A stretch of 64,000 nt of DNA from a virus. The notes beneath the pieces were generated by a model. The model made no database searches. It was not told where the DNA came from and saw only the letters and a list, made by a program, of their open reading frames with translations. The stretch spans positions 64,001 through 128,000 of IMG/VR virus record IMGVR_UViG_3300042562_002450, one strand, 5' to 3'. The stretch's first letter is position 1. Each line of letters begins with the position of its first letter. This document shows, piece by piece, positions 19,486 to 39,198 of this stretch. The translations under genes were made by a program, and so were the position numbers.

Positions 19486-19487
19486 AC

Positions 19488-19516
19488 TTGGCATGAAGTC
19501 ATTTTTTAAATATAAT
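19488..19516 (+). promoter_or_regulatory. Sigma70-like promoter
   Basis: TTGGCA-N17-TATAAT upstream of the GGAG RBS and ATG at 19560. Confidence 0.65.
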
Positions 19517-19559
19517 AAAAGACTAATGGTATTAAATCCAGTCTAGGAGTTTTGATACA

Positions 19560-20009
19560 ATGTATGCTAAACATGAAAAGTATATTGATACTGCCGTCGA
19601 TGGTATGATTTTCGACATTGAACATAATCTTAAAACTATGATGCCATTAGCATCCCTGTATGAGCCAATCGGCTTAACAGATTTCCGCTCCGTTTCTCTT
19701 TATGATTCAAGGGTTGGTTTTATTGAATCTAAAGGTCTTAATGTAAGTAGAGTAAGTTTTAGTGCACCGTTTCAAGGTTACATCTCATTCTTAGATATTA
19801 AGAATGCAAAACCCAGTCTTGAAGATCGATTAAACAAAATTGAGTCTACAATCTCTTCTGCGATTCAGCAGCAAAAAAGTTTTACTACCATTTCTCAATG
19901 GAAGGAAATGAATAATTTTGAAGAAAAAGAACTTCAGGTGTTAAGAAGTGCAATTAACGTTCTGAGTAATCAATTGAGTTCATTAGAAGAGGAAGTAAAA
20001 AACCTCTAA
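19560..20009 (+). CDS. Hypothetical protein with C-terminal coiled coil
   Basis: 149 aa ORF with own promoter and RBS. Confidence 0.7.
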   Translation: MYAKHEKYIDTAVDGMIFDIEHNLKTMMPLASLYEPIGLTDFRSVSLYDSRVGFIESKGLNVSRVSFSAPFQGYISFLDIKNAKPSLEDRLNKIESTISSAIQQQKSFTTISQWKEMNNFEEKELQVLRSAINVLSNQLSSLEEEVKNL

Positions 20010-20125
20010 GACAGATGTGGTTTATTGGGAACTATAGTTGTATATATTTTTAGCCTGACCAAAAGCTTCTATTGTCCCAATAAACCCTACTGTTTCTTTT
20101 TTTTTGTTTTATTATTTTAACATTA

Positions 20126-20548
20126 TTATATTTCTAAGTCTTGTAGAATATCCATACTTTCTTTTATCGAATCTTTACTTTTCGAAGTTTTCCCAATCTT
20201 TCCTTTTATTTCAATCTTTTCAGTTTTAATTATAACTGGACCATCATCATAATTAAAGGTCTGCTTATTGATGTCATCTGGTTGTCGTCTGGTGAATTCA
20301 GGATATGCATGCGACTGCAGCTTGTCTCCTATTCTTTCGATAATCCTATTTGCAATATCATCGACATCTAATGAAACTTCTACCTTATTTTCTCTCATAA
20401 AAGCAACCATCATGCGCTCTGCGATATCTGAAGCTTTTTTTAAAAGATCATGCTCAAGATCTAATGTGTTAAAGTAATACTGCTTGTCTCTTACAATGTT
20501 GACTGGTGGAACTCTTAGATTTTTTGTTTGTGTTGTTCTTTGTGACAT
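20126..20548 (-). CDS. Hypothetical protein
   Basis: 140 aa ORF, convergent with 19560-20009. Confidence 0.65.
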   Translation of the reverse strand: MSQRTTQTKNLRVPPVNIVRDKQYYFNTLDLEHDLLKKASDIAERMMVAFMRENKVEVSLDVDDIANRIIERIGDKLQSHAYPEFTRRQPDDINKQTFNYDDGPVIIKTEKIEIKGKIGKTSKSKDSIKESMDILQDLEI

Positions 20549-20633: not shown

Positions 20634-21692
20634 ATGATTATCTCAGATAGCATCAATATATACTTAAAGACCACAGAGACATGTAACTTGAATTGTGATC
20701 ATTGTTTTACCTCTGGAAGCAAAGGTAGGAAGATTTTTTTTAATCCAGAGAAAACATTTCTTTTTCTAGATAAGCTTTTTAGTCATCAGAAATACAAGCA
20801 TAAAAAAGTTATTCTTCATGGTGGAGAGCCGATGCTTGCACCTGCCTCTGATATTAGAAAGATACATAAGTTAATAAAAGATAAGTATCCTGAAACAGAA
20901 TTTAGTCTACAGACAAATCTAGTATATAAGTTAAACGAAGAGCGGCAATCCTTAATTGATGATCTTTTTCTTGAAAAAGGAATGGGAACATCTTGGGATT
21001 ACAAGATGAGATTTGCTTCTTATCAACAGCAGCTTCAGTGGGAAGATAATGTTCGAGCTCTACTAGCCAAAGGTCATTACCTTTCTGTTATGGTATCTTT
21101 AAACAAAGACTTACTTGATAACTTTGAGCCTGTAGATATCATTCAGTACTTTATTGATCTTGGGATTCAGCATGTTCTTTTTGAACGCATAACCTCTAAT
21201 GGTAACGCTCTACTTAATCCTAACATTCAGCCTCAGAATAAAGATCTAGATGCTTGGCTTCTAAAGATGTATGAACAGACAATAGAATATAAGCTCTATG
21301 ATAAAATCCATAATATGTTTCTTGATGAAATAGCTACGACTTATGTTAATAGGATCCATGCTGGAAACAGATGTAGAAACTGTGAACAAAGCCTAGTTAC
21401 CATTAATGCTGATGGTAGTCTTTCTGGATGTCCTAATAGTGCTGCTAGCGAATACTGGGGAAATATTGAATGGTCGATCCAAGAAAATCTTTCCTCTAAA
21501 AAAAGATTGAAGACAATGGCTTGTGAGCTTAAGCGAAATGATAACTGCCTAACTTGTCCTGTGAATAGTATCTGCAATGGTGATTGTCATAGACTCCCCT
21601 GGCAAGGTGATATCTGCGCGGCTCCCAAAAGCCTAATGAAGATGATGAAAGAACAAAATAAGATTGAAGATTACAGAAAGTTAATGTTATGA
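20634..21692 (+). CDS. Radical SAM/SPASM enzyme (rSAM-1)
   Basis: CNLNCDHC, LHGGEP, QTNL. SPASM Cys set CRNC...INADGSLSGCP...CLTCPVNSICNGDC...C. Confidence 0.92.
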   Translation: MIISDSINIYLKTTETCNLNCDHCFTSGSKGRKIFFNPEKTFLFLDKLFSHQKYKHKKVILHGGEPMLAPASDIRKIHKLIKDKYPETEFSLQTNLVYKLNEERQSLIDDLFLEKGMGTSWDYKMRFASYQQQLQWEDNVRALLAKGHYLSVMVSLNKDLLDNFEPVDIIQYFIDLGIQHVLFERITSNGNALLNPNIQPQNKDLDAWLLKMYEQTIEYKLYDKIHNMFLDEIATTYVNRIHAGNRCRNCEQSLVTINADGSLSGCPNSAASEYWGNIEWSIQENLSSKKRLKTMACELKRNDNCLTCPVNSICNGDCHRLPWQGDICAAPKSLMKMMKEQNKIEDYRKLML

Positions 21693-22144
21693 ATTGGAAA
21701 ATGAGATCTAAGATATATCACATGATGACTCCTGAGCCAGGAGACAATCTTGAGAAAGAAACCATTGTTGAAGAGTGGGACAAAAAAAGTATTATAAAAA
21801 GAGCAATCGAATATCCAACTTTTCAAACTAAAGAGTTATATTATCCAGCGAAGTCATATGCAATTGCTACATTGTATGCTATTCTTTTGACTGAAAATTT
21901 TGGTGGCGAACCTCTTGATTATTTAAAAGATCCAGAATTACTTGCAGGAAATGATCCATATTTCAAACCTTACGATAGCTCTAATAAAGATATTTATTCA
22001 ATAATTTGGAGCCATATTTTTCTAGCATTGGAAGATGGTTCAGAAAAAACTTCTGAAAATTTTAATAAATCTGTACAATATTTCTACGAGGAATTTTTAC
22101 TTGCTGAAAATACAAAAGTCTACTTGCCTCCTGACGAAAGATGA
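21689..22144 (+). CDS. Hypothetical protein coupled to rSAM-1
   Basis: 151 aa; ATGA-type overlap with the rSAM-1 stop; contains YPAKSYAIA...DPELLAGNDPYFKPY. Confidence 0.8.
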   Translation: MNWKMRSKIYHMMTPEPGDNLEKETIVEEWDKKSIIKRAIEYPTFQTKELYYPAKSYAIATLYAILLTENFGGEPLDYLKDPELLAGNDPYFKPYDSSNKDIYSIIWSHIFLALEDGSEKTSENFNKSVQYFYEEFLLAENTKVYLPPDER

Positions 22145-22634
22145 AATCAATAGTCTTATCTATGACTATGATCTATATCTATCTAAGAGCTTTTACATAA
22201 TCAATAAAGAACGGAAAGAATACAATGAAGATAATCATTCTCCAGATTTTATGTCTCATATACAAAAACTTGAAAAAGCATCCGGTGAAGGCTGCACTAT
22301 CATTGTTAAGAATATGGAAAGATATAACAGCCAAATACAAGAAACGGCAGAAGAGCTAGCACCAGGAACAGACGTTCATCTTTACTTAGTATTCGCTGAA
22401 GAAAGTGGAGATAGTTTTAATTGGCATAGAGATGATAAACCAGTTTGGATAAAAATGATCTATGGTGAGAAATTTTTTTCAATTAGATCAAGAGCAAAAG
22501 AAACTGTTTTCATAGATTCCTATAAAGTAAAAGAAAATGGATACTTATATATTGGATTAAGAGAGCATAGAGCTGAACCAATGGGACCATCTGCTATGTT
22601 AAGCTTTGGCTTGCCCAATCAAGAAGATCTCTAA
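22035..22634 (+). CDS. Cupin/JmjC-like oxygenase (start uncertain)
   Basis: DVHLY...GDSFNWHRDDKPVWIKMIYGEKFF resembles the JmjC/Cupin_4 HxD core; distal His in REHRAEP. Confidence 0.7.
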   Translation: MVQKKLLKILINLYNISTRNFYLLKIQKSTCLLTKDEINSLIYDYDLYLSKSFYIINKERKEYNEDNHSPDFMSHIQKLEKASGEGCTIIVKNMERYNSQIQETAEELAPGTDVHLYLVFAEESGDSFNWHRDDKPVWIKMIYGEKFFSIRSRAKETVFIDSYKVKENGYLYIGLREHRAEPMGPSAMLSFGLPNQEDL

Positions 22635-23532
22635 AACCACTACATGATTTTTCAATTGATTTAACATCGCGATAATGTTCTGTTAAGCATCGTCCCAAGT
22701 AAGGACATGCTGAACATATCGGATTTGATTTAACCTTAGTCTTTTCTAATCTAGCCCATAACAAGTATTCGTTAAAGCTATCCATCTCAAAAAAGTACTC
22801 ATTTTGTTCCAGATCAAACTCGAGAACGCCAAACTTTCCATTGGGAGTAATATAAACATGGCTATCACTATAAGCAGAATATAAACCACTGAGACTATCC
22901 TTGATCCTGTTTTTATTTATAAATGTAAAGTTTTTACGAATAGGAGAGATTAACCATTGCTTAACAAATTCTTCATACTCCTTATCAGTTACAGGTAAGG
23001 TATTTGCTTGGTTAGATGAGTATGGCTTTATCTCAACTGAAACTACATTTTGATATGTATTAAGTATACCGATCATCCTGTTAATGTCTAATTTCAACAA
23101 GTTAGGTGATGCCAACATTAGTATGGCAATTGGTTTCGATATCTTAGCCATGTTACTAAGTACCAACTCATGCTTCTCTCTGGCTTCAAAATCTAAGCTA
23201 ACAGAAAGATCTACATAGTCATGTAAGAAATATGAATTTATTTTAGAAAGATTTGTGATAACACTTATGCTTGGTTTCGAATAAACATTTAAAATTTCAT
23301 CTAATTTTTCCAAATAAGTAGGAGAAAGCAATCCTACTTCTCCACCATACAGATCTACGTGCTCTATGTAATAGCCATGGCTTCTTATCTCTTCAACCAT
23401 TGCAACAAGCCTTGATGGATCTAGTTTCTTTTGATCAGCTAATTGTTCTGGTCTAAGATAACAAAACTCACATCTAAAGTTACAAAGATATGTTGGATTT
23501 AAAGATATTGTTAATGGCTTAGCAGAGTCCAT
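22594..23532 (-). CDS. Radical SAM enzyme with C-terminal Cys cluster (rSAM-2)
   Basis: CNFRCEFC, LYGGE, ITNL; C-terminal CSACPYLGRC...C. Confidence 0.9.
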   Translation of the reverse strand: MDSAKPLTISLNPTYLCNFRCEFCYLRPEQLADQKKLDPSRLVAMVEEIRSHGYYIEHVDLYGGEVGLLSPTYLEKLDEILNVYSKPSISVITNLSKINSYFLHDYVDLSVSLDFEAREKHELVLSNMAKISKPIAILMLASPNLLKLDINRMIGILNTYQNVVSVEIKPYSSNQANTLPVTDKEYEEFVKQWLISPIRKNFTFINKNRIKDSLSGLYSAYSDSHVYITPNGKFGVLEFDLEQNEYFFEMDSFNEYLLWARLEKTKVKSNPICSACPYLGRCLTEHYRDVKSIEKSCSGFRDLLDWASQSLT

Positions 23533-24538
23533 GTTCTATTGCTCTCTTTCTAAACTCTTTCATTTTGACACAGCTTTCTTCGACAAGATTGTGCCTCTTT
23601 AGATCTTGAACTGTTTTATAGCATCCATTACATATAATAAAGTTTGGACAAGAAAGACATTCTTCTTTTTGATACTGAATGTTATGATCTGACTGTAGTG
23701 GCTTAAAGAATTCTCCAGCCATCTCTTTTTCAAAATCAATAGGATATTCCTGATCATCTCCCAATGATCCACATGATCCATACTCATATCCACTTTCGGA
23801 AACAGGCTGCAGATTTCTTATTCCCTCATCGCATTTTCTATTCTGAGGACATGTTGTAAATTCAGAGCCTTTGAGTCTCATAAGCATTTGTTTGGTAGAG
23901 TATTCCCATTCAGATAATCCAGCCTCGTATACGTTCATGTATATCTCATACATGTAACCAATAGGGAAAGGTCTCCCTTCTCTACCTGATGCCATTGCAT
24001 AATTCATCTTGCATTCAGCGCCGATATGTTTCGCAAGCCTTACATTGTTTAGTGCAAGATGCTTGTTATCTTCCGTAATTACAGAAATGAAATGTGGAAC
24101 ATATCCAAAGTCACCTTTGAATTTGTCTATAACTTTTAAAAATATTTCCTCAGTAAAGACTTGTCCTGGTCGTATTTGTCGGCTATCGCCATAATGAAAT
24201 GAAGTACATATTTGAACCTGAGATTGACTAAAAAGTTCTCTCCATTTGTCTGGATGAAGCCAATAGTCCCATAAGTTAGTAGTAAAACTGATGACACAAT
24301 CTGTCATCTTTCTTTCTTCTAGCATCTTAATTATTTGCCAGTAATACTCAGGAGATACCATAAGAGGATCTCCTCCATTTACTATTATTGTTTTAGTTTC
24401 TGGGAATCTATCAAGAAATTGACGGACCTTGTCTATATCAAGATCATCGATCGGTTTATTAGATTTTGCAATCTCTGTTGAGCTACAGAACGTACATGAG
24501 AAATTACACCTTTGCGTTGGCTTAATGATGAGATCCAT
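23519..24538 (-). CDS. Radical SAM/SPASM enzyme (rSAM-3)
   Basis: CNFSCTFC, VNGGDP, FTTNL; CPQNRKC...GSCGS...CLSCPNFIICNGC...C. Confidence 0.92.
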   Translation of the reverse strand: MDLIIKPTQRCNFSCTFCSSTEIAKSNKPIDDLDIDKVRQFLDRFPETKTIIVNGGDPLMVSPEYYWQIIKMLEERKMTDCVISFTTNLWDYWLHPDKWRELFSQSQVQICTSFHYGDSRQIRPGQVFTEEIFLKVIDKFKGDFGYVPHFISVITEDNKHLALNNVRLAKHIGAECKMNYAMASGREGRPFPIGYMYEIYMNVYEAGLSEWEYSTKQMLMRLKGSEFTTCPQNRKCDEGIRNLQPVSESGYEYGSCGSLGDDQEYPIDFEKEMAGEFFKPLQSDHNIQYQKEECLSCPNFIICNGCYKTVQDLKRHNLVEESCVKMKEFRKRAIEHGLC

Positions 24539-24547
24539 GCTTTCCTA

Positions 24548-24610
24548 TTGTATTAAATTTTTAATTAATATATAATAACTTATCATAGTATAGTTTACAC
24601 TAACTTTAAA
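24548..24610. promoter_or_regulatory. Overlapping divergent sigma70-like promoters
   Basis: Plus strand: TTGTAT(24548)-N17-TATAAT(24571). Minus strand: TTTAAA(24610)-N17-TATGAT(24587). Confidence 0.6.
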
Positions 24611-24630
24611 GTGATTTTAAAGGCAACCAG

Positions 24631-25365
24631 ATGGCAATAGTAAAAGATGAAGGTATCACAAGAGAAGATATCATCAATAAATTTAACTTGAGAGTAAGAG
24701 ACTGGGTAGCTTCAAATGTTACTCTACTTGGAAATAGAACTTATACAGCAAGTCATTCTGTATGGAATGGAACTCCAGGTTGGAAAAATGGTGGTGACAC
24801 TTCAGGTCCTGCGTACAGAGTGACTAGAACATTAAACTCGACAGCAGCAGCACTTGCTCTTAATTCAACAAATGCTGGTGGTGCAACAGACTCAATATTG
24901 AATACAGACCGTATACTTTCTGAAGTAATGCTTACTAGTGATTTTACTCCTGACGTAGGTGCAGCAAATAGCACTGGGCATGTAATTAAAATATTAAGAG
25001 ACATGATGGCTTCATACTCAAGAGTTCACCAGATTCGTATTCAGAATATAGGAAATCTTACATTCTCAATTTCTGGAGTAGCAGGAACTATGCTGTCTGA
25101 TACTGGAGTTGCAATTGGAACGACAACCAGACCAACAGCTATTGCTTTGATGAATACAGATATGGATTTATATATAAATACTAATAATTTAAAAGCTGGT
25201 GGCACTCTTGATGCAGATAAGTTCAACAACTTTCTTGAAACATGTAGATCTATATGGCTTAATCGCTGTGTAAACTCAGGAGTGCTAGAAACATTTAACT
25301 TTAGCTATTGCCACTCATCATGTCATTCAAATGTTACTTGTTATAACTCAAGAGGCCGAAGGTAA
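24631..25365 (+). CDS. Putative modification substrate A (precursor-like protein with C-terminal Cys/His/Ser core)
   Basis: 244 aa; paralogous to the next gene; ends SYCHSSCHSNVTCYNSRGRR; lies amid rSAM genes. Confidence 0.8.
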   Translation: MAIVKDEGITREDIINKFNLRVRDWVASNVTLLGNRTYTASHSVWNGTPGWKNGGDTSGPAYRVTRTLNSTAAALALNSTNAGGATDSILNTDRILSEVMLTSDFTPDVGAANSTGHVIKILRDMMASYSRVHQIRIQNIGNLTFSISGVAGTMLSDTGVAIGTTTRPTAIALMNTDMDLYINTNNLKAGGTLDADKFNNFLETCRSIWLNRCVNSGVLETFNFSYCHSSCHSNVTCYNSRGRR

Positions 25366-25984
25366 AGTTATGTCTATTATTTTAAATAATACAATTACTA
25401 GAGAAAATATTATTGCAAAATTTAATGAAAGAGTTAGAGACTGGGTAGTCTCTAATACTAACTTCTTAAATGCGACTCCAGTATGGAATCAAACTGTTGG
25501 TTACATAACAGCAAACAGCTCAGCTTTTGGTGGAGGTATTAACCGGATAACAGAAGTTTCGGCTACTCCAGTTTCTATTCAGGTCACAGATTTAATATCT
25601 AACATCGGTGCTGATAATTCAGCTGCAGGAAAAATCGTAAAAGTATTAAAAGATTTCTTAATCTTATATGCAAATAATCATAGAATAACATTAAACAATA
25701 CTGGGAATCTTGCTCCAGCAAATTATGTTGGAGTCGCAAGACTTAATGGAACGCCACTTGCAACACAAACTGCAATAGGAACTGATGTTGACGCTGCAGC
25801 AATTGCAAGTAATGTTTCTAATGGTCAACTTATAACTGCATTAAATCTTAATAGTTTTATTGAGTCATGTAGAACAATTTGGACTAATAGAGCATTCACT
25901 CCAAGCTTAGAAACATTTAATTATAGTTATTGTCATTCATCGTGCCACTCAAATGTTACTTGTTACAATTCAAGAGGTCGAAGG
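25303..25984 (+). repeat. Duplicated 60-nt core-coding segment (25303-25362 and 25925-25984)
   Basis: Same 20 residues encoded with 9 synonymous codon differences and no amino-acid change. Confidence 0.95.
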
Positions 25985-25987
25985 TAA
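25370..25987 (+). CDS. Putative modification substrate B (paralog of A)
   Basis: In-frame ATG 4 nt after the stop of A. MSIILNNTITRENIIAKFNERVRDWV aligns with A's ITREDIINKFNLRVRDWV. Identical C-terminal 20 aa. Confidence 0.8.
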   Translation: MSIILNNTITRENIIAKFNERVRDWVVSNTNFLNATPVWNQTVGYITANSSAFGGGINRITEVSATPVSIQVTDLISNIGADNSAAGKIVKVLKDFLILYANNHRITLNNTGNLAPANYVGVARLNGTPLATQTAIGTDVDAAAIASNVSNGQLITALNLNSFIESCRTIWTNRAFTPSLETFNYSYCHSSCHSNVTCYNSRGRR

Positions 25988-25995
25988 GGTTATCT

Positions 25996-27132
25996 ATGGA
26001 GAAAACCTTAATAAACAAAGATGGCCCAAAGAGTATTAATGATTTCTTGAAGATCAAAGAGTCATATAAAACAAAAGACTCAATGCTTCTCTCTATATTT
26101 AAAGAGAAGACTCCACCTTATACTGAGATTGAAATTTCTTTCTTTGAACTATGCAATCTACATTGTCGTTTTTGCTGGCAAGATAATTATAATCCCACTG
26201 GAATTAATTCAATTAAAGAAAAAGCAGAAATTGTAATCGACTATCTAGATAAGCAAAAGGAAAGGCTACAGCCAAATATTCAAGTACACATGCTTGGTGG
26301 TGAGCTCTTTGAAGATAGCAATGATTACTATGATCAGTATTATTCTTTTATTAGTTCTATTTCTGAATATGTAAAAGCTAAAATGCCTGAAAAACATTTA
26401 CGCTTTGTCTTTTTAACTAATATGAATTTTCAAAAAGATGAGACCAAAATGAAGCTGGAGCATTTCCTCTTAAAGCTTCAACTTAAAGAAATTAAGTTTA
26501 TTCTAACTACATCTTGGGATCCAACAGGTCGCCCACTCAAAGGTGATATTGAGACTCAGTTCCATAAGAACATTACTTACTTTAAGGAGTATCTAAGTGA
26601 GGTAACTTTCGTATTAACGAAATCAACAATAAACCGACTTTTACAAGATAAAAATGATTACCTTGATCTATTAGTAAATCAAGGCTTTAACATCGATTAT
26701 GATTACTATATGCCCACAACCTGGGTTGATCAAATGATGCCTAGTGATAGAGATCTGCTTAATGCCTTTAGGTATCTAATTTATAAATATCCAAATATCC
26801 GTAAGTTAAAAGCATGGACAAGCAAGGAACCTGGAGAAGGAACTATCAGTTGTGCTAGCCTTAATAAGATAACAATACTACCAGATGGTACTATTACTAA
26901 CTGTAGACATCTTAAATATGATCAAAAAGATTTTGAAAGCAAGGTGCAAAATGAATCAAATAGTGATATGATTCTAACCTATCTATCAAAGCGCGAGTGT
27001 TTAAACTGCCCTTACTTTAAGGAGTGTCCTCTAAGTTGTTTCCTTATGGCTGATCATAAGAAATTTAATGGAAACTTAGAGCTTTCTGAGTGTCTTTATA
27101 GTATCCTTTTTAAGGAAAAATATAAGAGGTAA
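25996..27132 (+). CDS. Radical SAM/SPASM-like enzyme (rSAM-4)
   Basis: CNLHCRFC, MLGGE, FLTN; SCAS...ILPDGTITNC...CLNCPYFKECPLSC...C. Start moved to in-frame ATG 25996, after the stop of substrate B. Confidence 0.9.
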   Translation: MEKTLINKDGPKSINDFLKIKESYKTKDSMLLSIFKEKTPPYTEIEISFFELCNLHCRFCWQDNYNPTGINSIKEKAEIVIDYLDKQKERLQPNIQVHMLGGELFEDSNDYYDQYYSFISSISEYVKAKMPEKHLRFVFLTNMNFQKDETKMKLEHFLLKLQLKEIKFILTTSWDPTGRPLKGDIETQFHKNITYFKEYLSEVTFVLTKSTINRLLQDKNDYLDLLVNQGFNIDYDYYMPTTWVDQMMPSDRDLLNAFRYLIYKYPNIRKLKAWTSKEPGEGTISCASLNKITILPDGTITNCRHLKYDQKDFESKVQNESNSDMILTYLSKRECLNCPYFKECPLSCFLMADHKKFNGNLELSECLYSILFKEKYKR

Positions 27133-27134
27133 AT

Positions 27135-27866
27135 ATGAATACTAAAACTTTAATTAAAACATTGCCTTTATCAACTGATGATTTGATTTCTCTTTTTGAT
27201 AATCCAGGCCAGATCTTAGATATTGATTATTCTAAATCATCTTTAAAGGATGATGCATTTTTTGCATATGTTTCTAATGTTAAGATTCAATGTCGTCTTC
27301 ATGGTTATGAGGATCTCTCCTATAATGAAAAAGAAAGATTATTAAATTCATTTATTAATTCAAAATATACAATGGAAATTGAAAATCTAAAAGAAACTAT
27401 TGTTGGTATTCTACTTAATGCAGATCCTAAAAGTATTTCTTTTTTCAAAGAAGATGAAATTGAAAAATACAAAGTAGAAAATAGAGATAGATTAAATCAG
27501 CTAGTTCAATTTTTTAATTCAATGCTAATAATGATTCCATCTATATCTAGTGATTTTAAGAAACTCTTTATAGACACAGGGATAGAGGATGGCTCAATAG
27601 CAGAGATTGATGGAACTGATTTTATAACTCCAAATATTTATAACTTAACTTTTTATCCAGGTTTTATTGATCTCTTTATTGGCAATCAAGAAGAAGAACA
27701 TTCTTTAGTCTTTTACAAAGGTGTTATCGATAGCTACCAATATAAAAATAAAAGCTTTTTCTCTCTTCTTACTGATAATGAAACAGCACCAAATCTAATT
27801 ACAATTTTTAATTATTTCTTTATTGAAAATGAAGAAAGTGAAAAAGAACTAAAAGAAGCCATCTAA
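27135..27866 (+). CDS. Hypothetical protein in the rSAM operon
   Basis: 243 aa acidic ORF, 2 nt after the rSAM-4 stop. Confidence 0.8.
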   Translation: MNTKTLIKTLPLSTDDLISLFDNPGQILDIDYSKSSLKDDAFFAYVSNVKIQCRLHGYEDLSYNEKERLLNSFINSKYTMEIENLKETIVGILLNADPKSISFFKEDEIEKYKVENRDRLNQLVQFFNSMLIMIPSISSDFKKLFIDTGIEDGSIAEIDGTDFITPNIYNLTFYPGFIDLFIGNQEEEHSLVFYKGVIDSYQYKNKSFFSLLTDNETAPNLITIFNYFFIENEESEKELKEAI

Positions 27867-27880
27867 CAAAGGTAAAAAAT

Positions 27881-29011
27881 ATGATCCACTTCCTAGGTAA
27901 AGTATTCCTTGAATATACTGAAACCAAACCACAACTTGACCATATGACTGTAAAGCCATCTCAATATATAAGAATTGTAGATAGAGGGCTTGCTAACATT
28001 ATGGATAGTTACTCAATCAATAAGCACATTGCAAACTTTAAAGATGTAGAAGAATGTCTTGAGAAATTCGTAACATTTGATAATTTTATTTCTTTCCTTA
28101 ATGAGAAAGAAAAAGAAGAAAGAGTTATTATTTACTGTGATGAAGTCTCTATGCCAAAACTTCTTTGTAGTCTTTGGAAGAGTATCTTCCCTGGCATAAC
28201 TAAAGAAATTGCATATAGTTTTTATGTCTCATATAAAGACAATGAATACTTCAGAAGAGATGACAGAAATGAGTATATTGAGATAGATATTAATAGTGCT
28301 AAAATAGAAAAGACAGCATTCCTTACTCGTTACTGGGACTTAGATAGAGAACTTTTTTATTCTTATTTTGATAATGCAGAATCTTTTAGTCTTGAGAATA
28401 AAGAAACAGCAATTGGCCTTGAGTTTGCCTTCACCAAGTTATTGCTAGACAATGAAAGATTTAAGCCTGTTTTTTCTGAGAAGTTAGAATATCTATATAA
28501 AAAGAATATCTCTAAAGAAATCATTTTCATGATCTCAACTATAAGAGAACATTGTCTTATTCTTCTAAGAAAAAAAGGAATAATGAATGAGATCATGCTT
28601 AATGACACATCGGTAATCGACTATCTTAAAGGACAGGAAAGATATAATATTCTTTTTGATGGGAACGTTAAGCATGCACCAGAGACCTATGATTATCTTA
28701 GATCTAAAGGAAACATTTTAAAACTTATTTCAGATCTTACATTTGACTGTTCAGTTATCCACAAAGAGATAAATCCAAGTTTTGTTTCTTTTGAAGAATT
28801 TAAACAAGAAAATCCAATTTGTTCATATATTCTTGAACAAAAGAAAGAACCTATTCTTGAAGACTTAATGGATGCTAATATTCTTAAGTTCTCTAATTAT
28901 CATTTCATTAGAAGTTATGTACAAACTGGTATTTTTAATTACTTTCTTCTTCAGTCTATTTGCATTACAAATGAAGCCAACCCTTCAGCACTAGATGCTC
29001 TTAAAGTCTAA
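27881..29011 (+). CDS. Hypothetical protein in the rSAM operon
   Basis: 376 aa ORF; contains RVIIYCDE; no recognised domain. Confidence 0.8.
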   Translation: MIHFLGKVFLEYTETKPQLDHMTVKPSQYIRIVDRGLANIMDSYSINKHIANFKDVEECLEKFVTFDNFISFLNEKEKEERVIIYCDEVSMPKLLCSLWKSIFPGITKEIAYSFYVSYKDNEYFRRDDRNEYIEIDINSAKIEKTAFLTRYWDLDRELFYSYFDNAESFSLENKETAIGLEFAFTKLLLDNERFKPVFSEKLEYLYKKNISKEIIFMISTIREHCLILLRKKGIMNEIMLNDTSVIDYLKGQERYNILFDGNVKHAPETYDYLRSKGNILKLISDLTFDCSVIHKEINPSFVSFEEFKQENPICSYILEQKKEPILEDLMDANILKFSNYHFIRSYVQTGIFNYFLLQSICITNEANPSALDALKV

Positions 29012-29468
29012 TCAGCTACTTAATAGAATCAATAAGGAAGGATTTGTATTTGCAGAATACGATCCTTCTTTAATACAATATCTTCAATCTCATGAAGATA
29101 GAATTCTTATTCTAAAAGAATGGATTAAAGAGATAATAGATATAGAAGGTGAAACTCTGTATGCAGACTGGGAAGCTCTAGATAAAGACCAATCCATCAA
29201 GCTCCATTATCATGTTATCCCTGGATCTTTTCAAGCAGTAACATGGGTTCCTGAAAATAACTTTGAAGGTAGAGAATTCCTATACGGCATAAAGGATGAA
29301 ATCTTAAAGGTAAAGCCCAGACTGGGTCTTATTTGTTTCTTTAAACCAAATGATGAAAACTATATACATGGAGTGGCTCCACTACTTAGCGACACTAAGG
29401 TCTATAGCTATGGCTTTACTAGTTCAGTTTTGGATATTTCTCAAACAGAAAATGATATTTACGTATGA
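28995..29468 (+). CDS. Divergent 2OG-Fe(II) oxygenase-like (DSBH) protein with HxH...H motif
   Basis: LHYH...FQAVTW...EGREF...YIHGV parallels the pattern of the neighbouring oxygenases. Confidence 0.6.
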   Translation: MLLKSNQLLNRINKEGFVFAEYDPSLIQYLQSHEDRILILKEWIKEIIDIEGETLYADWEALDKDQSIKLHYHVIPGSFQAVTWVPENNFEGREFLYGIKDEILKVKPRLGLICFFKPNDENYIHGVAPLLSDTKVYSYGFTSSVLDISQTENDIYV

Positions 29469-30298
29469 ACATAACTGCTAAGCAGGATAACTTCTTGATC
29501 GGCTTTTAGCTTCTCGACTTTATGAACAAATCTTGGATTATAAGTATTTAAGAATAAGACCATTCCATCTTTAATTTCAATTTTAGTTTCTTTAATTATA
29601 TTTCCACTTCTGCAAATACCTTTCTGGTCTAACTCTATTGTTAAGAGATCTCTTTCTCCAATAACTAGTTCTCTTCCTTCTATCTTTTTAGAGTTAGAGA
29701 AGTAATTGAATATCATATAATAGACCCCAGGTGTGTAATCCATATGGAAACTATACGGTCCTCTTGTGTCTAATTCATTTTCTTTATATCTGTACTTCAG
29801 AGCATCTGTAGATATTATTCTCCTATCTAATCTTAATGGTCCAGAATACTTAGGGACATTAAGAACTATATAGTTTAACTCTTCAGCATTTGAATTCAAT
29901 ATACTTAATGGTAGGTTGTCATCTTTAAAAAAGACAATGCTGTTTATCTTTTCTCTTACCTTTTCATGCACATCATAGTGAGCTACAAAGTAGCCATCAT
30001 GTTGCATGTCGCGCCAAAAGTAATCAAAACTATTTTTCTTATTACCAATGAAAGAGATTGGGATAAAGCTTCCAGCTTTATACTCTGATGAGCTATCTTT
30101 ACTATAGATTTCGTCTATATAGTATCCATCCTCTGTGACCTTAATGAATTCAAATTCAAGATTAGGTAGGAATACCATCTCTCCATAAAGATCCGTAAAA
30201 TAGGAATAAAGCCATGACTTTTTAAATTCATCAGGAGTTCCAAACCAGCCCTTACCTTTAGTAAAGAAATTAATAGTTTCTGGTGTCATTAGTCCCAC
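29459..30298 (-). CDS. Divergent 2OG-Fe(II) oxygenase-like protein
   Basis: FHMD...EGRELVIG...NPRFVHKV. Confidence 0.65.
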   Translation of the reverse strand: MGLMTPETINFFTKGKGWFGTPDEFKKSWLYSYFTDLYGEMVFLPNLEFEFIKVTEDGYYIDEIYSKDSSSEYKAGSFIPISFIGNKKNSFDYFWRDMQHDGYFVAHYDVHEKVREKINSIVFFKDDNLPLSILNSNAEELNYIVLNVPKYSGPLRLDRRIISTDALKYRYKENELDTRGPYSFHMDYTPGVYYMIFNYFSNSKKIEGRELVIGERDLLTIELDQKGICRSGNIIKETKIEIKDGMVLFLNTYNPRFVHKVEKLKADQEVILLSSYVHT

Positions 30299-30827
30299 TT
30301 TTTATAAAAAAGTTAACTCTGTATGTATATCTATCTACTGGTGTTGGTAGTACTGCATGTGGATGTGTATAGAAGGTTGGCATAATAATCATTCTTCCGG
30401 CTCTTGGCTTTATAACTAAAGATTGTTTTGGAAAGACAATTTCTCCTCCTTCAATATCTTGGAGGTAAAGCAAGACTATAAAATTTCTCCTTAGTCCACC
30501 TTCAGAGATCTCATTATCGTAATGCATAGTCAAACCAGTGCCAGTCTTTAGTTTTAATAGCATACTATTTTCCAAATAATACTCAGCTTGAACCGTACCT
30601 ATTGATTGGAGATATTTGTCTACTTCCTTCTGGGCTAGTTCTCTAACATTAGAGTCAAAAGCTTTTAAGCTTTGAATCTTATCTAGGTTCATGAACTCAT
30701 GCTGCTCTCCATCGAAATTGATCTCTTTTGTTTTTCTTTGAAGATTTTCTTTCTCTAATGAAAAAATAAACTCTTCACAGGATTCTTTAGATATTAAATT
30801 ATCAATTTGGCGTATGAAGGTTTCCAT
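30270..30827 (-). CDS. 2OG-Fe(II) oxygenase (prolyl-4-hydroxylase-like)
   Basis: MHYD, LLYLQDIEGGEIVFP, IKPRAGRMIIMP, THPHAVLP...R: canonical HxD...H...R. Confidence 0.88.
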   Translation of the reverse strand: METFIRQIDNLISKESCEEFIFSLEKENLQRKTKEINFDGEQHEFMNLDKIQSLKAFDSNVRELAQKEVDKYLQSIGTVQAEYYLENSMLLKLKTGTGLTMHYDNEISEGGLRRNFIVLLYLQDIEGGEIVFPKQSLVIKPRAGRMIIMPTFYTHPHAVLPTPVDRYTYRVNFFIKSGTNDTRNY

Positions 30828-31750
30828 TATCTTTTTAACTTTATTTGATCAACAATAGAATGCATACTTAAGTGAGAAGGAATACTGTACATCTTTCCAG
30901 GCCCATGGAACTCTGAAACCTCATGATAAAAACGCGGATTAAAAACATTAACAAGAACACTGATGTTGGTATCTGCCCATATCTTATTCTCTTCTTTTCT
31001 ATCTGCAACTATATTATTTGTAGCTTCCCAGTCTTCGGTTATTATTGAATGAAACATATAATCATACCAGTCATAACTTCCAGTACATAAATAACGAGAA
31101 CCAGAGTTTTCTGTATTATAACTAACCATATTTACAAACATACGAAAATCAACATCATTATGAGGTAATATACTTCGTCCCTTGTTCCACTCTAAAGCGA
31201 TACAATCAAAGGCATCCATTGAAGACAATATTGGAGAAAAGCTAACTACTCGCTTCAGTTCTTTTTCTACATTCTTGTAAACATCTCGACATGTACTATT
31301 TTGGAAGTTTGGTTTTCCCCAAGCATTAGAATTGAATTTTAAAGTTTTAGATGGCTCTGTAGCTCTTTCACAACCAAGATCACTAAATGGTAGTCTTGGA
31401 AGTTTGTATAGTGTATTTTCAATATATGCTCTTGTATTGTTAGCTATAGCATATCCATGAGTAGATAATGCTGAGCCTATATTGCTAAATTCAATATCTC
31501 CCTTATTAAAGTTAATACCTTCAAAAGTAATATACTGATCTGAAGGATCTCCATACTCTTTGAATACATTCTCAAGTAAACGTACAAAACCTTGCTTTTT
31601 TACAATCTTAATAAAACCAGAGCTAGAGACTACAAGTTTTTTCTTATAAAGCATTTCAAAATATTTACAAAGATCAGACTCGAAGAATTCTTCAATGTTT
31701 CTAATATCAACAATATTGTAATCAAAGAAGTCTTTGGCAATCTTAAGCAT
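30827..31750 (-). CDS. Divergent 2OG-Fe(II) oxygenase-like protein
   Basis: ILPHND...NVFNPRFYHEV; TAATG overlap with the next gene. Confidence 0.65.
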   Translation of the reverse strand: MLKIAKDFFDYNIVDIRNIEEFFESDLCKYFEMLYKKKLVVSSSGFIKIVKKQGFVRLLENVFKEYGDPSDQYITFEGINFNKGDIEFSNIGSALSTHGYAIANNTRAYIENTLYKLPRLPFSDLGCERATEPSKTLKFNSNAWGKPNFQNSTCRDVYKNVEKELKRVVSFSPILSSMDAFDCIALEWNKGRSILPHNDVDFRMFVNMVSYNTENSGSRYLCTGSYDWYDYMFHSIITEDWEATNNIVADRKEENKIWADTNISVLVNVFNPRFYHEVSEFHGPGKMYSIPSHLSMHSIVDQIKLKR

Positions 31751-32327
31751 GTAGCTTCTTTTCTTTTAGATTAATGCTATCTCTCCATTCCCTTGAGTTG
31801 ATGCCAATGCCACCTATGATTACATATAACTCTGAGTCAGAAGTTAGTTCTGTTACTCCATGGTATGTATTCTCAGCAAAAGCATTAATAAAACAGAGGA
31901 GACCAGGTATGGGCCGAACCTTTAAATTGTAATCAGGACTGACAATATGAAGGTCTCGCCCAACAAAGGTATTGTCTTTAGGTATGTAAAGAAGAACCTC
32001 ATATGGATTGATTCTGCCCTTATCAGTATGCAAGGGAAGCCCATCTCCTTTTGTGTACTTATCTATGCCAAATTGGAATGACTGTATATCATTTTTTATT
32101 TGGTCATCTACTGATAACTGGCTAAGTATTAGATCTTTGATCTTAATATCTAAGTCCTTATCTACTTCCATTATCTTGTACTTAATATCTTCACTTGGTT
32201 CTTCATCCCCAGCATATTTAAGAGAATCAAGATAATCTACAAAACCTTCTGGAATCTGTATCTTAGTGAAAACAAAGTCATTCTGAACCAAATCAGTATA
32301 AGTTATATCTTTCTTTTTAAATAGCAT
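31743..32327 (-). CDS. 2OG-Fe(II) oxygenase-like protein
   Basis: LPLHTD, VLLYIP...GRDL, RPIPGLLCF, TYHGV. Confidence 0.75.
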   Translation of the reverse strand: MLFKKKDITYTDLVQNDFVFTKIQIPEGFVDYLDSLKYAGDEEPSEDIKYKIMEVDKDLDIKIKDLILSQLSVDDQIKNDIQSFQFGIDKYTKGDGLPLHTDKGRINPYEVLLYIPKDNTFVGRDLHIVSPDYNLKVRPIPGLLCFINAFAENTYHGVTELTSDSELYVIIGGIGINSREWRDSINLKEKKLHA

Positions 32328-32352
32328 AGGTAGTTTCTTCTTTTGTTCTACA

Positions 32353-32403
32353 ATCTTAACATTAAAAAACTAAATTGCAATTCCAAAAATACCAGATTAT
32401 AAT
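32353..32403. promoter_or_regulatory. Back-to-back promoters sharing a palindromic -35
   Basis: TTGCAA at 32375-32380. Plus strand: N17-TATAAT (32398-32403). Minus strand: N16 with extended -10 TGnTAAGAT. Confidence 0.55.
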
Positions 32404-32409
32404 CACTAA

Positions 32410-32949
32410 ATGATTACCAAACATGGCACGATACTATATGGACATAAAGTCTTTTCTGATACTTTTTGCTGGAAAGCAATTGACTCGATGACTTCTCAAA
32501 ATAAATTAAATAGAGGATATGGAGCAGAATGTTTTGATCTTGATATAACTCAATCCATGATAAGTGAGATAAAGAATGTCTTTACTGAAGCAAGGAAATC
32601 TATTGAGATACCTCCATTAATTATAAGAAATAGAGGAGAGGTTCTCAAGTATACTCCAGGTATGAAGCTAGATACTCATTTTGATATTCCATACTGCAAA
32701 GATGACTTCTATCCATTCGTAACTGTGATTAACTTAAACGAAGGATATGGAGGAGGTCTTTACTTTGACTGTGCTGATTTAGAAATAGAAGGAATGGGAT
32801 CTATCGTAATGACCCCATCTTCTTTTATGTCAACTCACTCAGTAAGAGAAATAACTGGAAAAGATAGATACTCTTTGCTATTGGATATTACATATCCCGA
32901 AATGCTTGAAAAGTGTTCTGGAAAAAAAGAAGATTGGATATTTATCTAG
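32410..32949 (+). CDS. 2OG-Fe(II) oxygenase (prolyl-4-hydroxylase-like)
   Basis: KYTPGMKLDTHFD, INLNEGYGGGLYF, STHSVREITGKDRYSL. Confidence 0.85.
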   Translation: MITKHGTILYGHKVFSDTFCWKAIDSMTSQNKLNRGYGAECFDLDITQSMISEIKNVFTEARKSIEIPPLIIRNRGEVLKYTPGMKLDTHFDIPYCKDDFYPFVTVINLNEGYGGGLYFDCADLEIEGMGSIVMTPSSFMSTHSVREITGKDRYSLLLDITYPEMLEKCSGKKEDWIFI

Positions 32950-33245
32950 TCTTTCTTATTCATAATTCTAGTAACTAATGGAATTAAGTATGGTGATACT
33001 TCTATTCCTAATGCTATGATCTGTTCATTAGAAATGCCTGACATTTCTTTTGAAATATTATTAAGTCCTGAGAATCCATCTTTAACTTTTTTTAAGAAAA
33101 TCTTATCTTGTGTTAGTTTAGAATAAACAGAAATAAGGTCTTCAAGATCAGCTCCATCTTCTAGACGATTAAGAGCAAACTCAACAATAGAAACAAGTGC
33201 AATTATTGCTTCTTTTGTATCTTTAGTTCCAATATCAATACTCAT
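32946..33245 (-). CDS. Small helical hypothetical protein (paralog-like to 33325-33642)
   Basis: 99 aa after GGAG RBS. Confidence 0.7.
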   Translation of the reverse strand: MSIDIGTKDTKEAIIALVSIVEFALNRLEDGADLEDLISVYSKLTQDKIFLKKVKDGFSGLNNISKEMSGISNEQIIALGIEVSPYLIPLVTRIMNKKD

Positions 33246-33259
33246 AAAATCTCCAGAAT

Positions 33260-33286
33260 AAAAAAGGGGAAGCCATAGCCTCCCCT
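33260..33286 (-). terminator. Rho-independent terminator
   Basis: Minus strand AGGGGAGGC-TATG-GCTTCCCCT followed by TTTTT. Confidence 0.8.
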
Positions 33287-33324
33287 CATTATAACATTTA
33301 AATAAGTTTTAGGCTATTAGCCTT

Positions 33325-33642
33325 TTAGCCTTTTACAAGTTTAACAAGCTCTGCAATCCCAACAACTAGATCAAATGATTTCTCAATGATCTCTTCTGTT
33401 CTTTCAGATTTAAGAACAAACTTAGACTTAAGACTAGCAATTAACTCAGCTTTTTGCTCTGGAGTTGCAGAAGCAAGTTCATCTTTCGCAGCTTTAAAAG
33501 CTGAAAGAGCTGGACCGATTTGCATAGCTGGAGCCATGATGTGAGGGATATCCAAGAAGTCAACTTTGTTATCAGCCAAGACTTTGTCTACTGAGTTTGC
33601 AAAAGTAACTGCGAAATTAACGATAGTTTTTAAAGATTCCAT
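33325..33642 (-). CDS. Small helical hypothetical protein
   Basis: 105 aa after AAGGAG RBS. Confidence 0.75.
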   Translation of the reverse strand: MESLKTIVNFAVTFANSVDKVLADNKVDFLDIPHIMAPAMQIGPALSAFKAAKDELASATPEQKAELIASLKSKFVLKSERTEEIIEKSFDLVVGIAELVKLVKG

Positions 33643-33849
33643 AGAATTCTCCTTAATTTTTTTAATCTTAAATTAGATTAAAATAAAACATAGTAATAAT
33701 ACTTTTTATTAAAAAGTAAAGCAAGACACATTTTGTCATACTTTCTAATGAATTAATTTTAGGCAATTTGTATATAGCAAGTATAATCAATGGAAGCTCT
33801 TTTATTGAGCTTCCATCTATTCTATCAACTTATTTTTTTTAAATCAAAT

Positions 33850-37932: not shown

Positions 37933-39198
37933 TTAAATCACGCATCTAGTTACAACGAGAACTAGTCCTTCTTCTGCTGTCAGCTTGTCTTCTAATGCTC
38001 TTGCAACAACTTGTCCAATAACGCCAGACTCTCCAACTCCAGGAAGATTAGAAAGAACAATAGCATCTCCCTTCTGAATCAAACCAATAACTCTACATGG
38101 TACGCGACCAGCCAAAGCAACATATGGATGTGTATCATCTAAACCAGCATCAACATTCATTTTAAATCCTGGATTCGCAGAAATAATACCAAATGGATTG
38201 AACCCATCTGCGATTGTAATTTCTTTAGCTCCACCAATTTTAACTATTGTTCCTGCTGGGTAAATAGCATCAGCTTCATATCTTTCAGCTAAGTCAGCGT
38301 ATAAAGCACTTGTTGCAGTTCCTATAAACTGACCTGCTGTTCTAACATTCCCTTTTGAATAAATTCCATTAGTAGGAATTAATATTGAATCAGTATCCAG
38401 ATCAGATGACAACAAGCTACTGATTCTTAATTGCTGAGGAGTTGTTCCATCTATTCCAGTTAGTTTGAACACTCCAGAACTTCTTAAATTTGGATTTTGA
38501 AGCTCAAGAGCTCCAGCCTTATGGAAGGTTATTCTTGAAATAGCATCCATTGAAATATCAATTCCATTAACGGTTTTAACGAATCCAGTATCTGAATCAT
38601 TAATAAAAGATATCCCTGGATTAAGAAGAGAACCATCTTGAAATAGTGATGGAACTAACATATTAAATGTTGTCTGGTTATACCAAAACTTTTCAACTCC
38701 TGCTGATGTAAAACCAACATTTCCACTAGATTTTAAATATAATCCAGTAGAGCTATCTGAAGCAAAAGCAATAGATGGACTTCCAACTAATCCATTTGCA
38801 AAAAACCCATTTGTATCTATCTGATACCAGTAAGAGTTTGCACCCTCTACTCTACAGATTAACATTACTCCACCATACTGAGATGAAGCTAGAGTTAAGT
38901 TCTGCTTATTTGCTATTCTTACATTCTGAGTACCAGTACCATGCTGAAGAATAAAAGTATTAGAAAGTGAGGGTTTATAAATTAAAAGAACTTGCCCATC
39001 GACACCGCCAGAGAATCCTGTGATCGTGACGTTTGATAGTGATGTATCGATAACAAGATTACTCTTGCCTCCAACATTAATAATTCCATCTGAAGTAACA
39101 ACCAATGATGGTGTAATCCAAAGGACTGGAGCCTTTAATGAATTTGCATGAATTGGGCCAGTATAATTATCCTGATAATATGCATATGGAAAAGGCAT
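37933..39198 (-). CDS. Tail fibre protein with C-terminal autoproteolytic chaperone-like domain (Peptidase_G2/IMC-like)
   Basis: PSIAFASDSSTG shaft repeats; YADLAERY...FGIIS...VALAGRVPCRV...KGD...VARALED. Confidence 0.7.
   Translation of the reverse strand: MPFPYAYYQDNYTGPIHANSLKAPVLWITPSLVVTSDGIINVGGKSNLVIDTSLSNVTITGFSGGVDGQVLLIYKPSLSNTFILQHGTGTQNVRIANKQNLTLASSQYGGVMLICRVEGANSYWYQIDTNGFFANGLVGSPSIAFASDSSTGLYLKSSGNVGFTSAGVEKFWYNQTTFNMLVPSLFQDGSLLNPGISFINDSDTGFVKTVNGIDISMDAISRITFHKAGALELQNPNLRSSGVFKLTGIDGTTPQQLRISSLLSSDLDTDSILIPTNGIYSKGNVRTAGQFIGTATSALYADLAERYEADAIYPAGTIVKIGGAKEITIADGFNPFGIISANPGFKMNVDAGLDDTHPYVALAGRVPCRVIGLIQKGDAIVLSNLPGVGESGVIGQVVARALEDKLTAEEGLVLVVTRCVI

Follow-up and report, generated by a model that had tools for sequence, protein, structure and literature searches.

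A 16-gene phage cassette, shared with predatory bacteria, that probably modifies the tail of two small particle proteins

The island, its tailed proteins and its enzymes

We analysed a 64,000-nucleotide stretch of DNA (hereafter, the window) that corresponds to bases 64,001-128,000 of the phage record IMGVR_UViG_3300042562_002450 (198,626 bp, six tRNAs), and focused on a gene island at positions 20634-32949. This island had been described as a unit of 16 genes in an earlier reading made from the letters of the DNA (hereafter, the sequence-only reading), and independent six-frame calling recovered all 16 open reading frames (ORFs) within the same limits, with 22035-22634, 28995-29468, and 32410-32949 all on the + strand. 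It comprises four radical S-adenosylmethionine (rSAM) genes (R1-R4), one cupin gene, six oxygenase-like genes (O1-O6), genes for three hypothetical proteins (H1-H3), and two paralogous genes encoding tailed proteins, Targets A and B (Table 1). Our analysis indicates that this cassette, which consists mostly of iron-sulfur radical enzymes and oxygenases, probably modifies the Cys/His/Ser/Tyr tail of these two small particle proteins.

DNA of the phage is present in lake and freshwater metagenomes from several studies; contigs from four such studies cover 27-30 of 30 bins of the island with no rearranged joints, and no RNA dataset is found among the listed metagenomic carriers. Family profile searches of the island recognised no transporter, peptidase, or nucleotide enzyme, in agreement with the sequence-only reading, and promoter-like sites are no more frequent in the region than expected by chance. 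The flanks are convergent, as that reading had stated, with a collagen/Collar fibre on the left and matches to virion-structural PHROGs on the right, but the baseplate gene that it placed there was not identified in either flank.

Targets A and B share 43% amino acid sequence identity overall, and 24 of their last 25 residues are identical. The codons of these 25 residues contain 10 synonymous differences and one non-synonymous difference; at the codon level, the tail is under strong purifying selection. Structural modelling shows a predicted folded domain of about 185 aa followed by a flexible tail. The target family, as collected by a profile search, forms 359 clusters at 50% identity, and its predicted fold matches only uncharacterised phage proteins in BFVD, including gp170 of phage Atu_ph07. 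No match to a solved fold was found, although the absence of such a match does not make the fold new. Neither protein contains a Pfam domain or, in a crude hydrophobicity screen, a signal-peptide-like stretch.

The sequence-only reading had emphasised an invariant Cys/His/Ser/Tyr tail; this is true of the two paralogs, but the unit kept across the family is aromatic-x-Ser/Asn rather than Cys. In 277 distinct tails, this unit is repeated at a spacing of 4 or 3 and is followed by R-x-R-R. The aromatic residue located seven residues from the tail end is His in 236 tails and Tyr in 21, and is Tyr in the window phage, whose tail has a Tyr-x-Ser unit in addition to two His-x-Ser/Asn units; position +2 relative to the aromatic residue is mostly Ser or Asn. 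Cys precedes the aromatic residue in about 67-77% of the later units and invariably in the first, the latter by construction, because the tail was defined from that Cys. Period-3 His-x-Ser repeats occur in some members of the family. The conserved aromatic (His/Tyr)-x-Ser/Asn unit points to ring chemistry similar to that of triceptides or of the His-Xaa-Ser (HXS) system, and the exchange of His for Tyr would fit ring chemistry better than metal ligation.

Several tail and body variants were also observed. The target encoded at positions 6643-7902 of a 292-kb phage contig (L017) is 419 aa long, has an insert of BspA-like leucine-rich repeats (recognised by eye) and an acidic tail lacking R-x-R-R, and lies next to a repeat-rich protein of 1985 aa. 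BFVD contains target relatives of 500-660 aa in Myoviridae sp. ctijX18, and a weak search for long fused targets yielded one match. In five targets of predatory bacteria (L039, L040, L051, L052, and L032), a Pro-Pro-Pro spacer replaces the middle unit.

All four CxxxCxxC proteins match phrog_1802 (E 1e-32 to 1e-59), and elsewhere in the 198,626-bp genome only one protein, of 353 aa at genome position 38039, carries an N-terminal CxxxCxxC. In 61 homologues of each enzyme, eight C-terminal Cys residues of R3, seven of R4, and four of R2 are 100% conserved; R1 has seven invariant ones and eight in 80% of the homologues. The C-terminal Cys clusters attributed to all four enzymes by the sequence-only reading are therefore SPASM-type sets in R1, R3, and R4, which fit the CX2CX5CX3C-type auxiliary cluster by their conserved Cys pattern, but are truncated to four Cys in R2. 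The SPASM model TIGR04085 is exceeded by R1 alone (33.2 bits versus a cut-off of 27). PF13186, the SPASM model that the sequence-only reading had proposed to search for, matches none of the island rSAMs, and the RiPP (a peptide made by the ribosome and then modified post-translationally) recognition element (RRE) that it also named was likewise undetected, with no PqqD/RRE Pfam match among the island proteins.

The best weak matches of R1 are the cyclophane synthases YhhB and ChlB, with YhhB as its best NCBIfam match (60.7 bits versus a cut-off of 445), and the solved structure nearest to R3 is anSME (E 1.6e-7). No island rSAM comes near the cut-off of any curated NCBIfam rSAM family, including the cofactor and nucleotide families to which their assignment, according to the sequence-only reading, would have spoken against peptide modification. 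As the matches to characterised maturases are all far below cut-off, they do not fix the chemistry of R1-R4. Matches to R3 on plasmids are distant (about 25%). In three loci (L020, L021, and L146), a second R3 paralog accompanies period-3 His repeats without Cys at the end of the tail; the window phage and its relative L022 lack this paralog and have tails ending in V/Y-T-C-Y. The pairing is seen on one branch, and L062 combines a lone R3 with repeats of this kind; it is only a lead for enzyme-motif assignment.

Support for the seven oxygenase-like genes is uneven. The H-x-D...H triad of the cupin is invariant in 24 homologues, and relatives show a faint JmjC_2 match. Of the six genes previously taken as double-stranded beta-helix oxygenases, O3 alone passes the Pfam model 2OG-FeII_Oxy_3 (2OG, 2-oxoglutarate) and O6 falls just below it; O1, O2, O4, and O5 are called from conserved His triads and moderate profile matches (probability 58-94%), and O1 has H-x-H instead of H-x-D. 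The three proteins previously listed as hypothetical are present but proved to be core components, and it is the oxygenase block of the window that is accessory. The model of H2 (predicted local distance difference test score, pLDDT, 89) consists of a small beta/alpha N-domain and helices, with no clear fold match (best Z 4.6). For H1 as well, no solved fold match was found, which for neither protein makes the fold new, and no Pfam family was detected in 60 members of H3.

Table 1. Genes of the island and the candidate fibre partner (positions in the window)
Feature	Position	Strand	Description	Basis or remark
R1	20634..21692	+	Radical SAM/SPASM, core	Canonical CX15C...CX2CX5CX3C...C; PF04055 above cut-off
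H1	21689..22144	+	Accessory protein (phrog_20737), core	Invariant Y-P-x-K-S-Y and D-P-x-L motifs
Cupin	22101..22634	+	Cupin/JmjC-like, H-x-D...H	Longest ORF from 22035; TTG at 22101 gives 177 aa as in homologues
R2	22594..23532	-	Radical SAM, core, truncated auxiliary Cys cluster (4 Cys)	Profile matches, Cys conservation
R3	23519..24538	-	Radical SAM/SPASM, 8 auxiliary Cys, most conserved core gene	
Target A	24631..25365	+	244 aa, folded body and tail, proposed substrate	Tail (C-H-x-S)2-N-V-T-C-Y-N-S-R-G-R-R
Target B	25370..25987	+	205 aa, paralog with the tail of Target A	AlphaFold2 body pLDDT about 86, last residues disordered
R4	25996..27132	+	Radical SAM/SPASM, core, 7 auxiliary Cys	ATG at 25996; longest ORF from 25930
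H2	27135..27866	+	Accessory protein (phrog_20767), core	Usually directly behind target
H3	27881..29011	+	Divergent accessory protein	
O1	28995..29468	+	Oxygenase-like, H-x-H...H, weak call	HHalign 77% to 2OG-type cluster; 48% identical to Halobacteriovorax sp. HLS protein
O2	29459..30298	-	Oxygenase-like, H-x-D...H	HHalign 94%
O3	30270..30827	-	2OG-Fe(II) oxygenase	PF13640 (2OG-FeII_Oxy_3) 43.9 bits versus cut-off 27
O4	30827..31750	-	Oxygenase-like, H-x-D...H in window copy, weak call	HHalign 58%; both His kept in 4 homologues
O5	31743..32327	-	Oxygenase-like, H-x-D...H	HHalign 77%; PF13640 on orthologue in L020, L021
O6	32410..32949	+	2OG-Fe(II) oxygenase-like	PF13640 25.4 versus cut-off 27; HHalign 96% to O3
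Fibre protein	37933..39198	-	C-terminal Peptidase_G2-type intramolecular-chaperone domain (37933-38325), candidate partner of targets	Outside island; only such ORF in genome

Co-inheritance in phages and predatory bacteria

Among cultured phages, the cassette occurs in lineages unrelated to one another, with its genes surrounding the target: in the jumbo phages Atu_ph07, RSF1/RSL2 and their relatives, and DT01, and in Phosso. IMG/VR contains 352 relatives of R3. Counted over 73 loci whose flanks are complete, R1, R3, and H2 are universal (73 loci each), followed by R2 (72), H1 and R4 (71 each), the target (70), the cupin (53), and H3 (51). Further 2OG oxygenases and extra rSAMs around the target are common and variable, and no transporter, free peptidase, or nucleotide enzyme is found among the conserved neighbours. 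These loci were gathered through R3, and thus select for it, because the target profile matched no IMG/VR loci directly and the deep alignment was too variable to scan.

The cassette is not confined to phages, as its earlier description as phage-encoded would imply. In GTDB, we identified 43 cassette loci, mostly in Bdellovibrionota, some of which lie on megabase contigs among housekeeping genes. A survey of an even sample of 301 Bdellovibrionota genomes, the only one that tests the link between R3 and the target both ways, detected R3 in 10 genomes and the target in nine of these 10 but in none of the other 291; related genomes in this sample are not independent, and the link holds in both directions. 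Together with the 70 of 73 loci above, this is the opposite of the lack of co-occurrence that the sequence-only reading had named as evidence against itself. The gene distributions show co-inheritance of the tailed protein with H1-H3 and the enzymes, both in phages and in predatory bacteria.

A new observation is a gene-for-gene counterpart of the phage cassette in the chromosome of the cultured Halobacteriovorax sp. HLS. All 16 island genes have counterparts in one stretch of this chromosome (identities of 26-63%), and the order and orientation of R1-H1-cupin, R2-R3 (reversed), and target-H2-H3-R4-O1 are common to both; the target protein of HLS is WP_127714895.1. The HLS stretch lies close behind rlmN, ends at a pilin-like S74 fibre, and does not differ in GC content from its flank; because 13.8 kb of it are entered in IMG/VR as a provirus of 6% completeness, the stretch is possibly a decayed prophage. 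In a tree of R1, R2, and R3, the window phage, three relatives, and HLS form a single branch (Shimodaira-Hasegawa approximate likelihood ratio test, SH-aLRT, 100), with HLS as the sister of the phage family inside the predator clade. This branch is nested in one of 15 rows (SH-aLRT 99), which otherwise contains eight Bdellovibrionota and two bins with questionable labels. The tree was obtained by a quick search with a midpoint root and does not fix the direction of transfer.

Other genes of the phage have similar affinities. The nearest clusters to its metalloprotease are mostly from Bdellovibrionota, and the family of its trypsin-like gene is present in 47 of 121 Bdellovibrionota genomes with up to 54% identity (three rhizobial plasmid copies reach 45%). 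Considering these affinities, the placement in the tree, and the HLS counterpart, the host of the phage is likely to be a predatory bacterium.

Further genes deserve mention. The metalloprotease and the trypsin-like protease (genome positions 15524-16429 and 59163-60032) are secreted-looking proteins of families common in Bdellovibrionota and are possibly host-derived, and host-like RecA, ClpX-like, and GroEL-like genes, assigned from their N-terminal sequence, lie at genome positions 33120-34166, 9307-10230, and 18721-20316 and may help to narrow down the host. Just upstream of the island, at 18439-19485 of the window, is a viral actin-like Volactin gene (PF25216, E 1e-67) that occupies the same place in three relatives. 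Two small genes (99 and 105 aa; window 32946-33245 and 33325-33642) with no family match follow the island in all three relatives; the 105-aa protein is found in none of the 301 predator genomes, which is uninformative on the host. A collagen-repeat tail fibre with a Collar domain lies at 8928-12293 of the window, and its Gly-X-Y repeats are a possible alternative substrate for some of the 2OG oxygenases. The nearest relative has a tail Collar-domain gene immediately ahead of R1, as an insertion (L022:3999-5066).

Particle location and proposed maturation of the tail

The virion proteome of Atu_ph07 includes gp170, the orthologue of the target, with 8 peptides and 35% coverage, whereas gp164-169, 171, and 172, cassette enzymes among them, are not listed in the virion table (PMC6102473 Table S5). 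The mass of gp170 was confirmed as 31.89 kDa. Its coverage excludes the tail peptide if cleavage was full and leaves it 50/50 with one missed cleavage. The 31.9-kDa gp170 is most abundant in gel band 1, the top band, with proteins of 127-139 kDa, whereas most proteins of 31-35 kDa peak in band 7 (PMC6102473 Table S5); this position need not reflect a radical cross-link, because the loading buffer lists no reductant.

A candidate partner of the targets is the Peptidase_G2 fibre, whose chaperone domain is related to that of phi29 gp12. Such a fibre lies within 10 kb of the target in 48 of 105 target loci, and the orthologous domain of Atu_ph07 is found in gp176, which is also a virion protein (PMC6102473). 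In the predator sample, the fibre is present in all nine target genomes, 5-16 kb away, and in six of the 292 others. Prepilin-like genes, some with S74 domains, adjoin it; such genes are present in 15 of 26 predator loci.

We consider it likely that the tail is the substrate of the cassette enzymes, and somewhat favour the complete interpretation that the cassette performs a RiPP-like maturation of a fibre-associated particle protein. In the cytoplasm of the infected cell, R1, R3, R4, and R2, aided by H1-H3, would act on the aromatic-x-Ser/Asn units of the tail. The likeliest product, although at slightly less than even odds, would be a triceptide-like cyclophane in which the His or Tyr ring is linked to the C-beta of the second residue after it; Cys thioethers may perhaps also be formed, and the cupin and 2OG enzymes would add hydroxylations. 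The four rSAMs and the oxygenases would thereby rigidify and decorate the tail, with its R-x-R-R end serving as a recognition handle or a cationic tip. The matured protein would be assembled with the particle's chaperone-folded fibre (in predators, on a pilin-like one), and we tentatively suggest that it acts in contact with a Gram-negative envelope, possibly as an adhesin, a covalent staple, or an aid to DNA entry. The sequence-only reading had proposed that the phage modifies its own, possibly virion-displayed, proteins; gp170 in the Atu_ph07 particle and the co-occurrence of enzymes and target support this, with the qualification that such modification would not be exclusive to phages. The roles that it suggested for the product (adhesin tip, metal-binding or anti-defence element) are conjectural.

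Several points weigh against this interpretation. Modification of the tail has so far been proposed from sequence and observed nowhere, the rSAM matches to characterised maturases all lie far below cut-off, and the Pfam search of the island proteins detected no RRE. The virion evidence comes from one distant phage, and co-purifying non-structural proteins appear in the same table. Five predator genomes have a strong Peptidase_G2 match but no cassette was found in them. Finally, none of the 26 bacterial targets shows a signal-peptide-like stretch in the hydrophobicity screen, which leaves their export unexplained.

The gel position of gp170 could be taken to mean that the enzymes link the tails of different subunits covalently to one another or to the fibre, producing a covalent virion or pilus polymer instead of a binding tip. 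Disulfides or oligomers stable in sodium dodecyl sulfate would explain the shift equally well in a loading buffer with no listed reductant, and the cassette enzymes were not detected in the Atu_ph07 particle; we regard such a structural staple as unlikely. Somewhat less probable still is that the cationic His-x-Ser tail acts on DNA at the envelope as HxsA does, as an ejection aid, a superinfection block, or a decoy of HXS. HxsA, which carries basic His-x-Ser repeats and is matured by rSAMs, binds DNA and prevents its entry, and the tails with period-3 repeats, together with weak matches of three of 126 targets to HxsA models, recall it. However, the island contains no signal peptide, peptidoglycan-binding domain, or HxsB/C/D, and the neighbours on predator chromosomes are pilin-like and fibre genes rather than defence genes. 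The abundance of Cys and His might instead reflect a metal site, with the enzymes building or loading a metallocofactor, but this is improbable given that Tyr replaces His in the window phage and in 21 tails and that, among the later units, roughly a quarter to a third have no Cys.

A variable body with an invariant C-terminal core is also the layout of a RiPP precursor, in which the body would be a long leader and the tail would be cut off and released as a small peptide. We find this very unlikely, since the body has a confident predicted fold, was detected in virions at 35% coverage, and may contain an inserted domain, and since the loci have no conserved transporter or free peptidase. Base hypermodification is a known activity of rSAM and 2OG enzymes of phages, and the island enzymes show weak matches to MoaA, QueE, and viperin models; they might thus modify DNA bases, tRNA, or a cofactor, with the tailed gene as a passenger. 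These matches are, however, far below cut-off, no nucleotide enzyme is found among the conserved neighbours, and the target and R3 are reciprocally linked genome-wide in the 301 Bdellovibrionota genomes, so that we give this explanation hardly any credence.

If tail maturation is correct, the cassette would add four rSAM families to those known, as well as several oxygenases, with a defined substrate of 19 residues, would be a new layer of host recognition common to jumbo phages and bacterial predators, and would account for the unannotated rSAM clusters in biocontrol phages such as RSF1, S13, and Atu_ph07. Radical-SAM peptide chemistry is not known as a finishing step for phage particles. A broader scenario, which we put forward only as a possibility, is that jumbo phages and predators share and exchange a pathway that makes a polycyclic RiPP-like tip on a fibre-associated protein for attacking Gram-negative cells, and that the window phage, which probably infects predators, acquired its copy from a host resembling Halobacteriovorax; this would amount to natural-product chemistry as part of a virion. 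The interpretation is open to direct test, as Atu_ph07 particles contain the target and Halobacteriovorax sp. HLS carries the gene set of the phage.

Comparison with known systems

HXS is an anti-phage system (HxsA/B/C/D; TIGR03976-03979; PMC13128918) in which HxsB/C mature a protein at its His-x-Ser repeats, with a mass change of +8 Da (PMC13128918). As proposed for the cassette, several rSAMs and a small helper act next to basic residues on the His-x-Ser repeats of a protein rather than of a released peptide, and such repeats are present in cassette tails. The cassette differs in having four or more unrelated rSAMs, which score 16-27 bits against HXS cut-offs of 268-370; the searches for orthologues of HxsB (TIGR03978) and HxsC (TIGR03977) gave at best 24.7 versus 370 and 27.3 versus 267.9 bits, no HxsD (TIGR03976) was found, and H1, H2, H3, and the cupin had no NCBIfam match beyond noise at E<=0.1. 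The HXS effector has a signal peptide and a peptidoglycan-binding domain, whereas Targets A and B have no Pfam domain and the hydrophobicity screen for signal peptides was negative for them and for the 26 bacterial targets; the cassette target is instead a virion protein with a different body, C-terminal C-H-x-S repeats, and R-x-R-R. The two systems also differ in distribution: phages and Bdellovibrionota versus Gammaproteobacteria.

Triceptides are defined on aromatic-X-X motifs including His, and their SPASM enzymes make His- or Tyr-to-C-beta rings on three-residue motifs (PMC11499958). SPASM rSAMs and aromatic-X-X motifs with His or Tyr relate the cassette to this group (YhhB, HaaB, HtkB, ChlB, XyeB, GrrM, and FxsB), which contains the best weak matches of R1, but no island enzyme reaches the cut-off of a curated cyclophane-synthase family (beside YhhB, FxsB 41.9 versus 370 and XyeB 23.5 versus 450 bits). 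Furthermore, the putative substrate of the cassette is a folded 200-aa particle protein, the cassette combines four rSAMs with oxygenases and has no peptidase or transporter, and its cross-link is proposed by analogy. Ranthipeptides and CXXX-repeat peptides (SCIFF TIGR03974, PapB, and TIGR04115) resemble it in their period-4 Cys repeats (C-x-x-S) and SPASM enzymes; however, the scores are 25-58 versus cut-offs of 340-425, the Cys of later units is dispensable whereas the aromatic residue is kept, and no cassette target matches the precursor models of these families.

The setting of the cassette resembles that of the Bdellovibrio MAT fibres (PMC10769870) and phi29 gp12-type appendages, self-chaperoned phage-like fibres common to phages and predators, in that S74 and Peptidase_G2 genes adjoin it. 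No covalent maturation cassette has been described for these fibres, and the cassette differs from the MAT fibres in having neighbours with prepilin-like N-termini and in being present in only about 3% of the sampled Bdellovibrionota. Our literature search, outside which most subscription papers lay, found no description of the cassette; Iyer 2021 does not mention radical SAM, and the S13 and FLC6 phage papers only list its genes. Judged by profile scores, the cassette falls outside HXS and outside every curated RiPP family. It appears to work like the HXS and triceptide systems, although its enzymes score below the models that define theirs; it is real and undescribed in the papers searched, and is probably a protein-maturation system.

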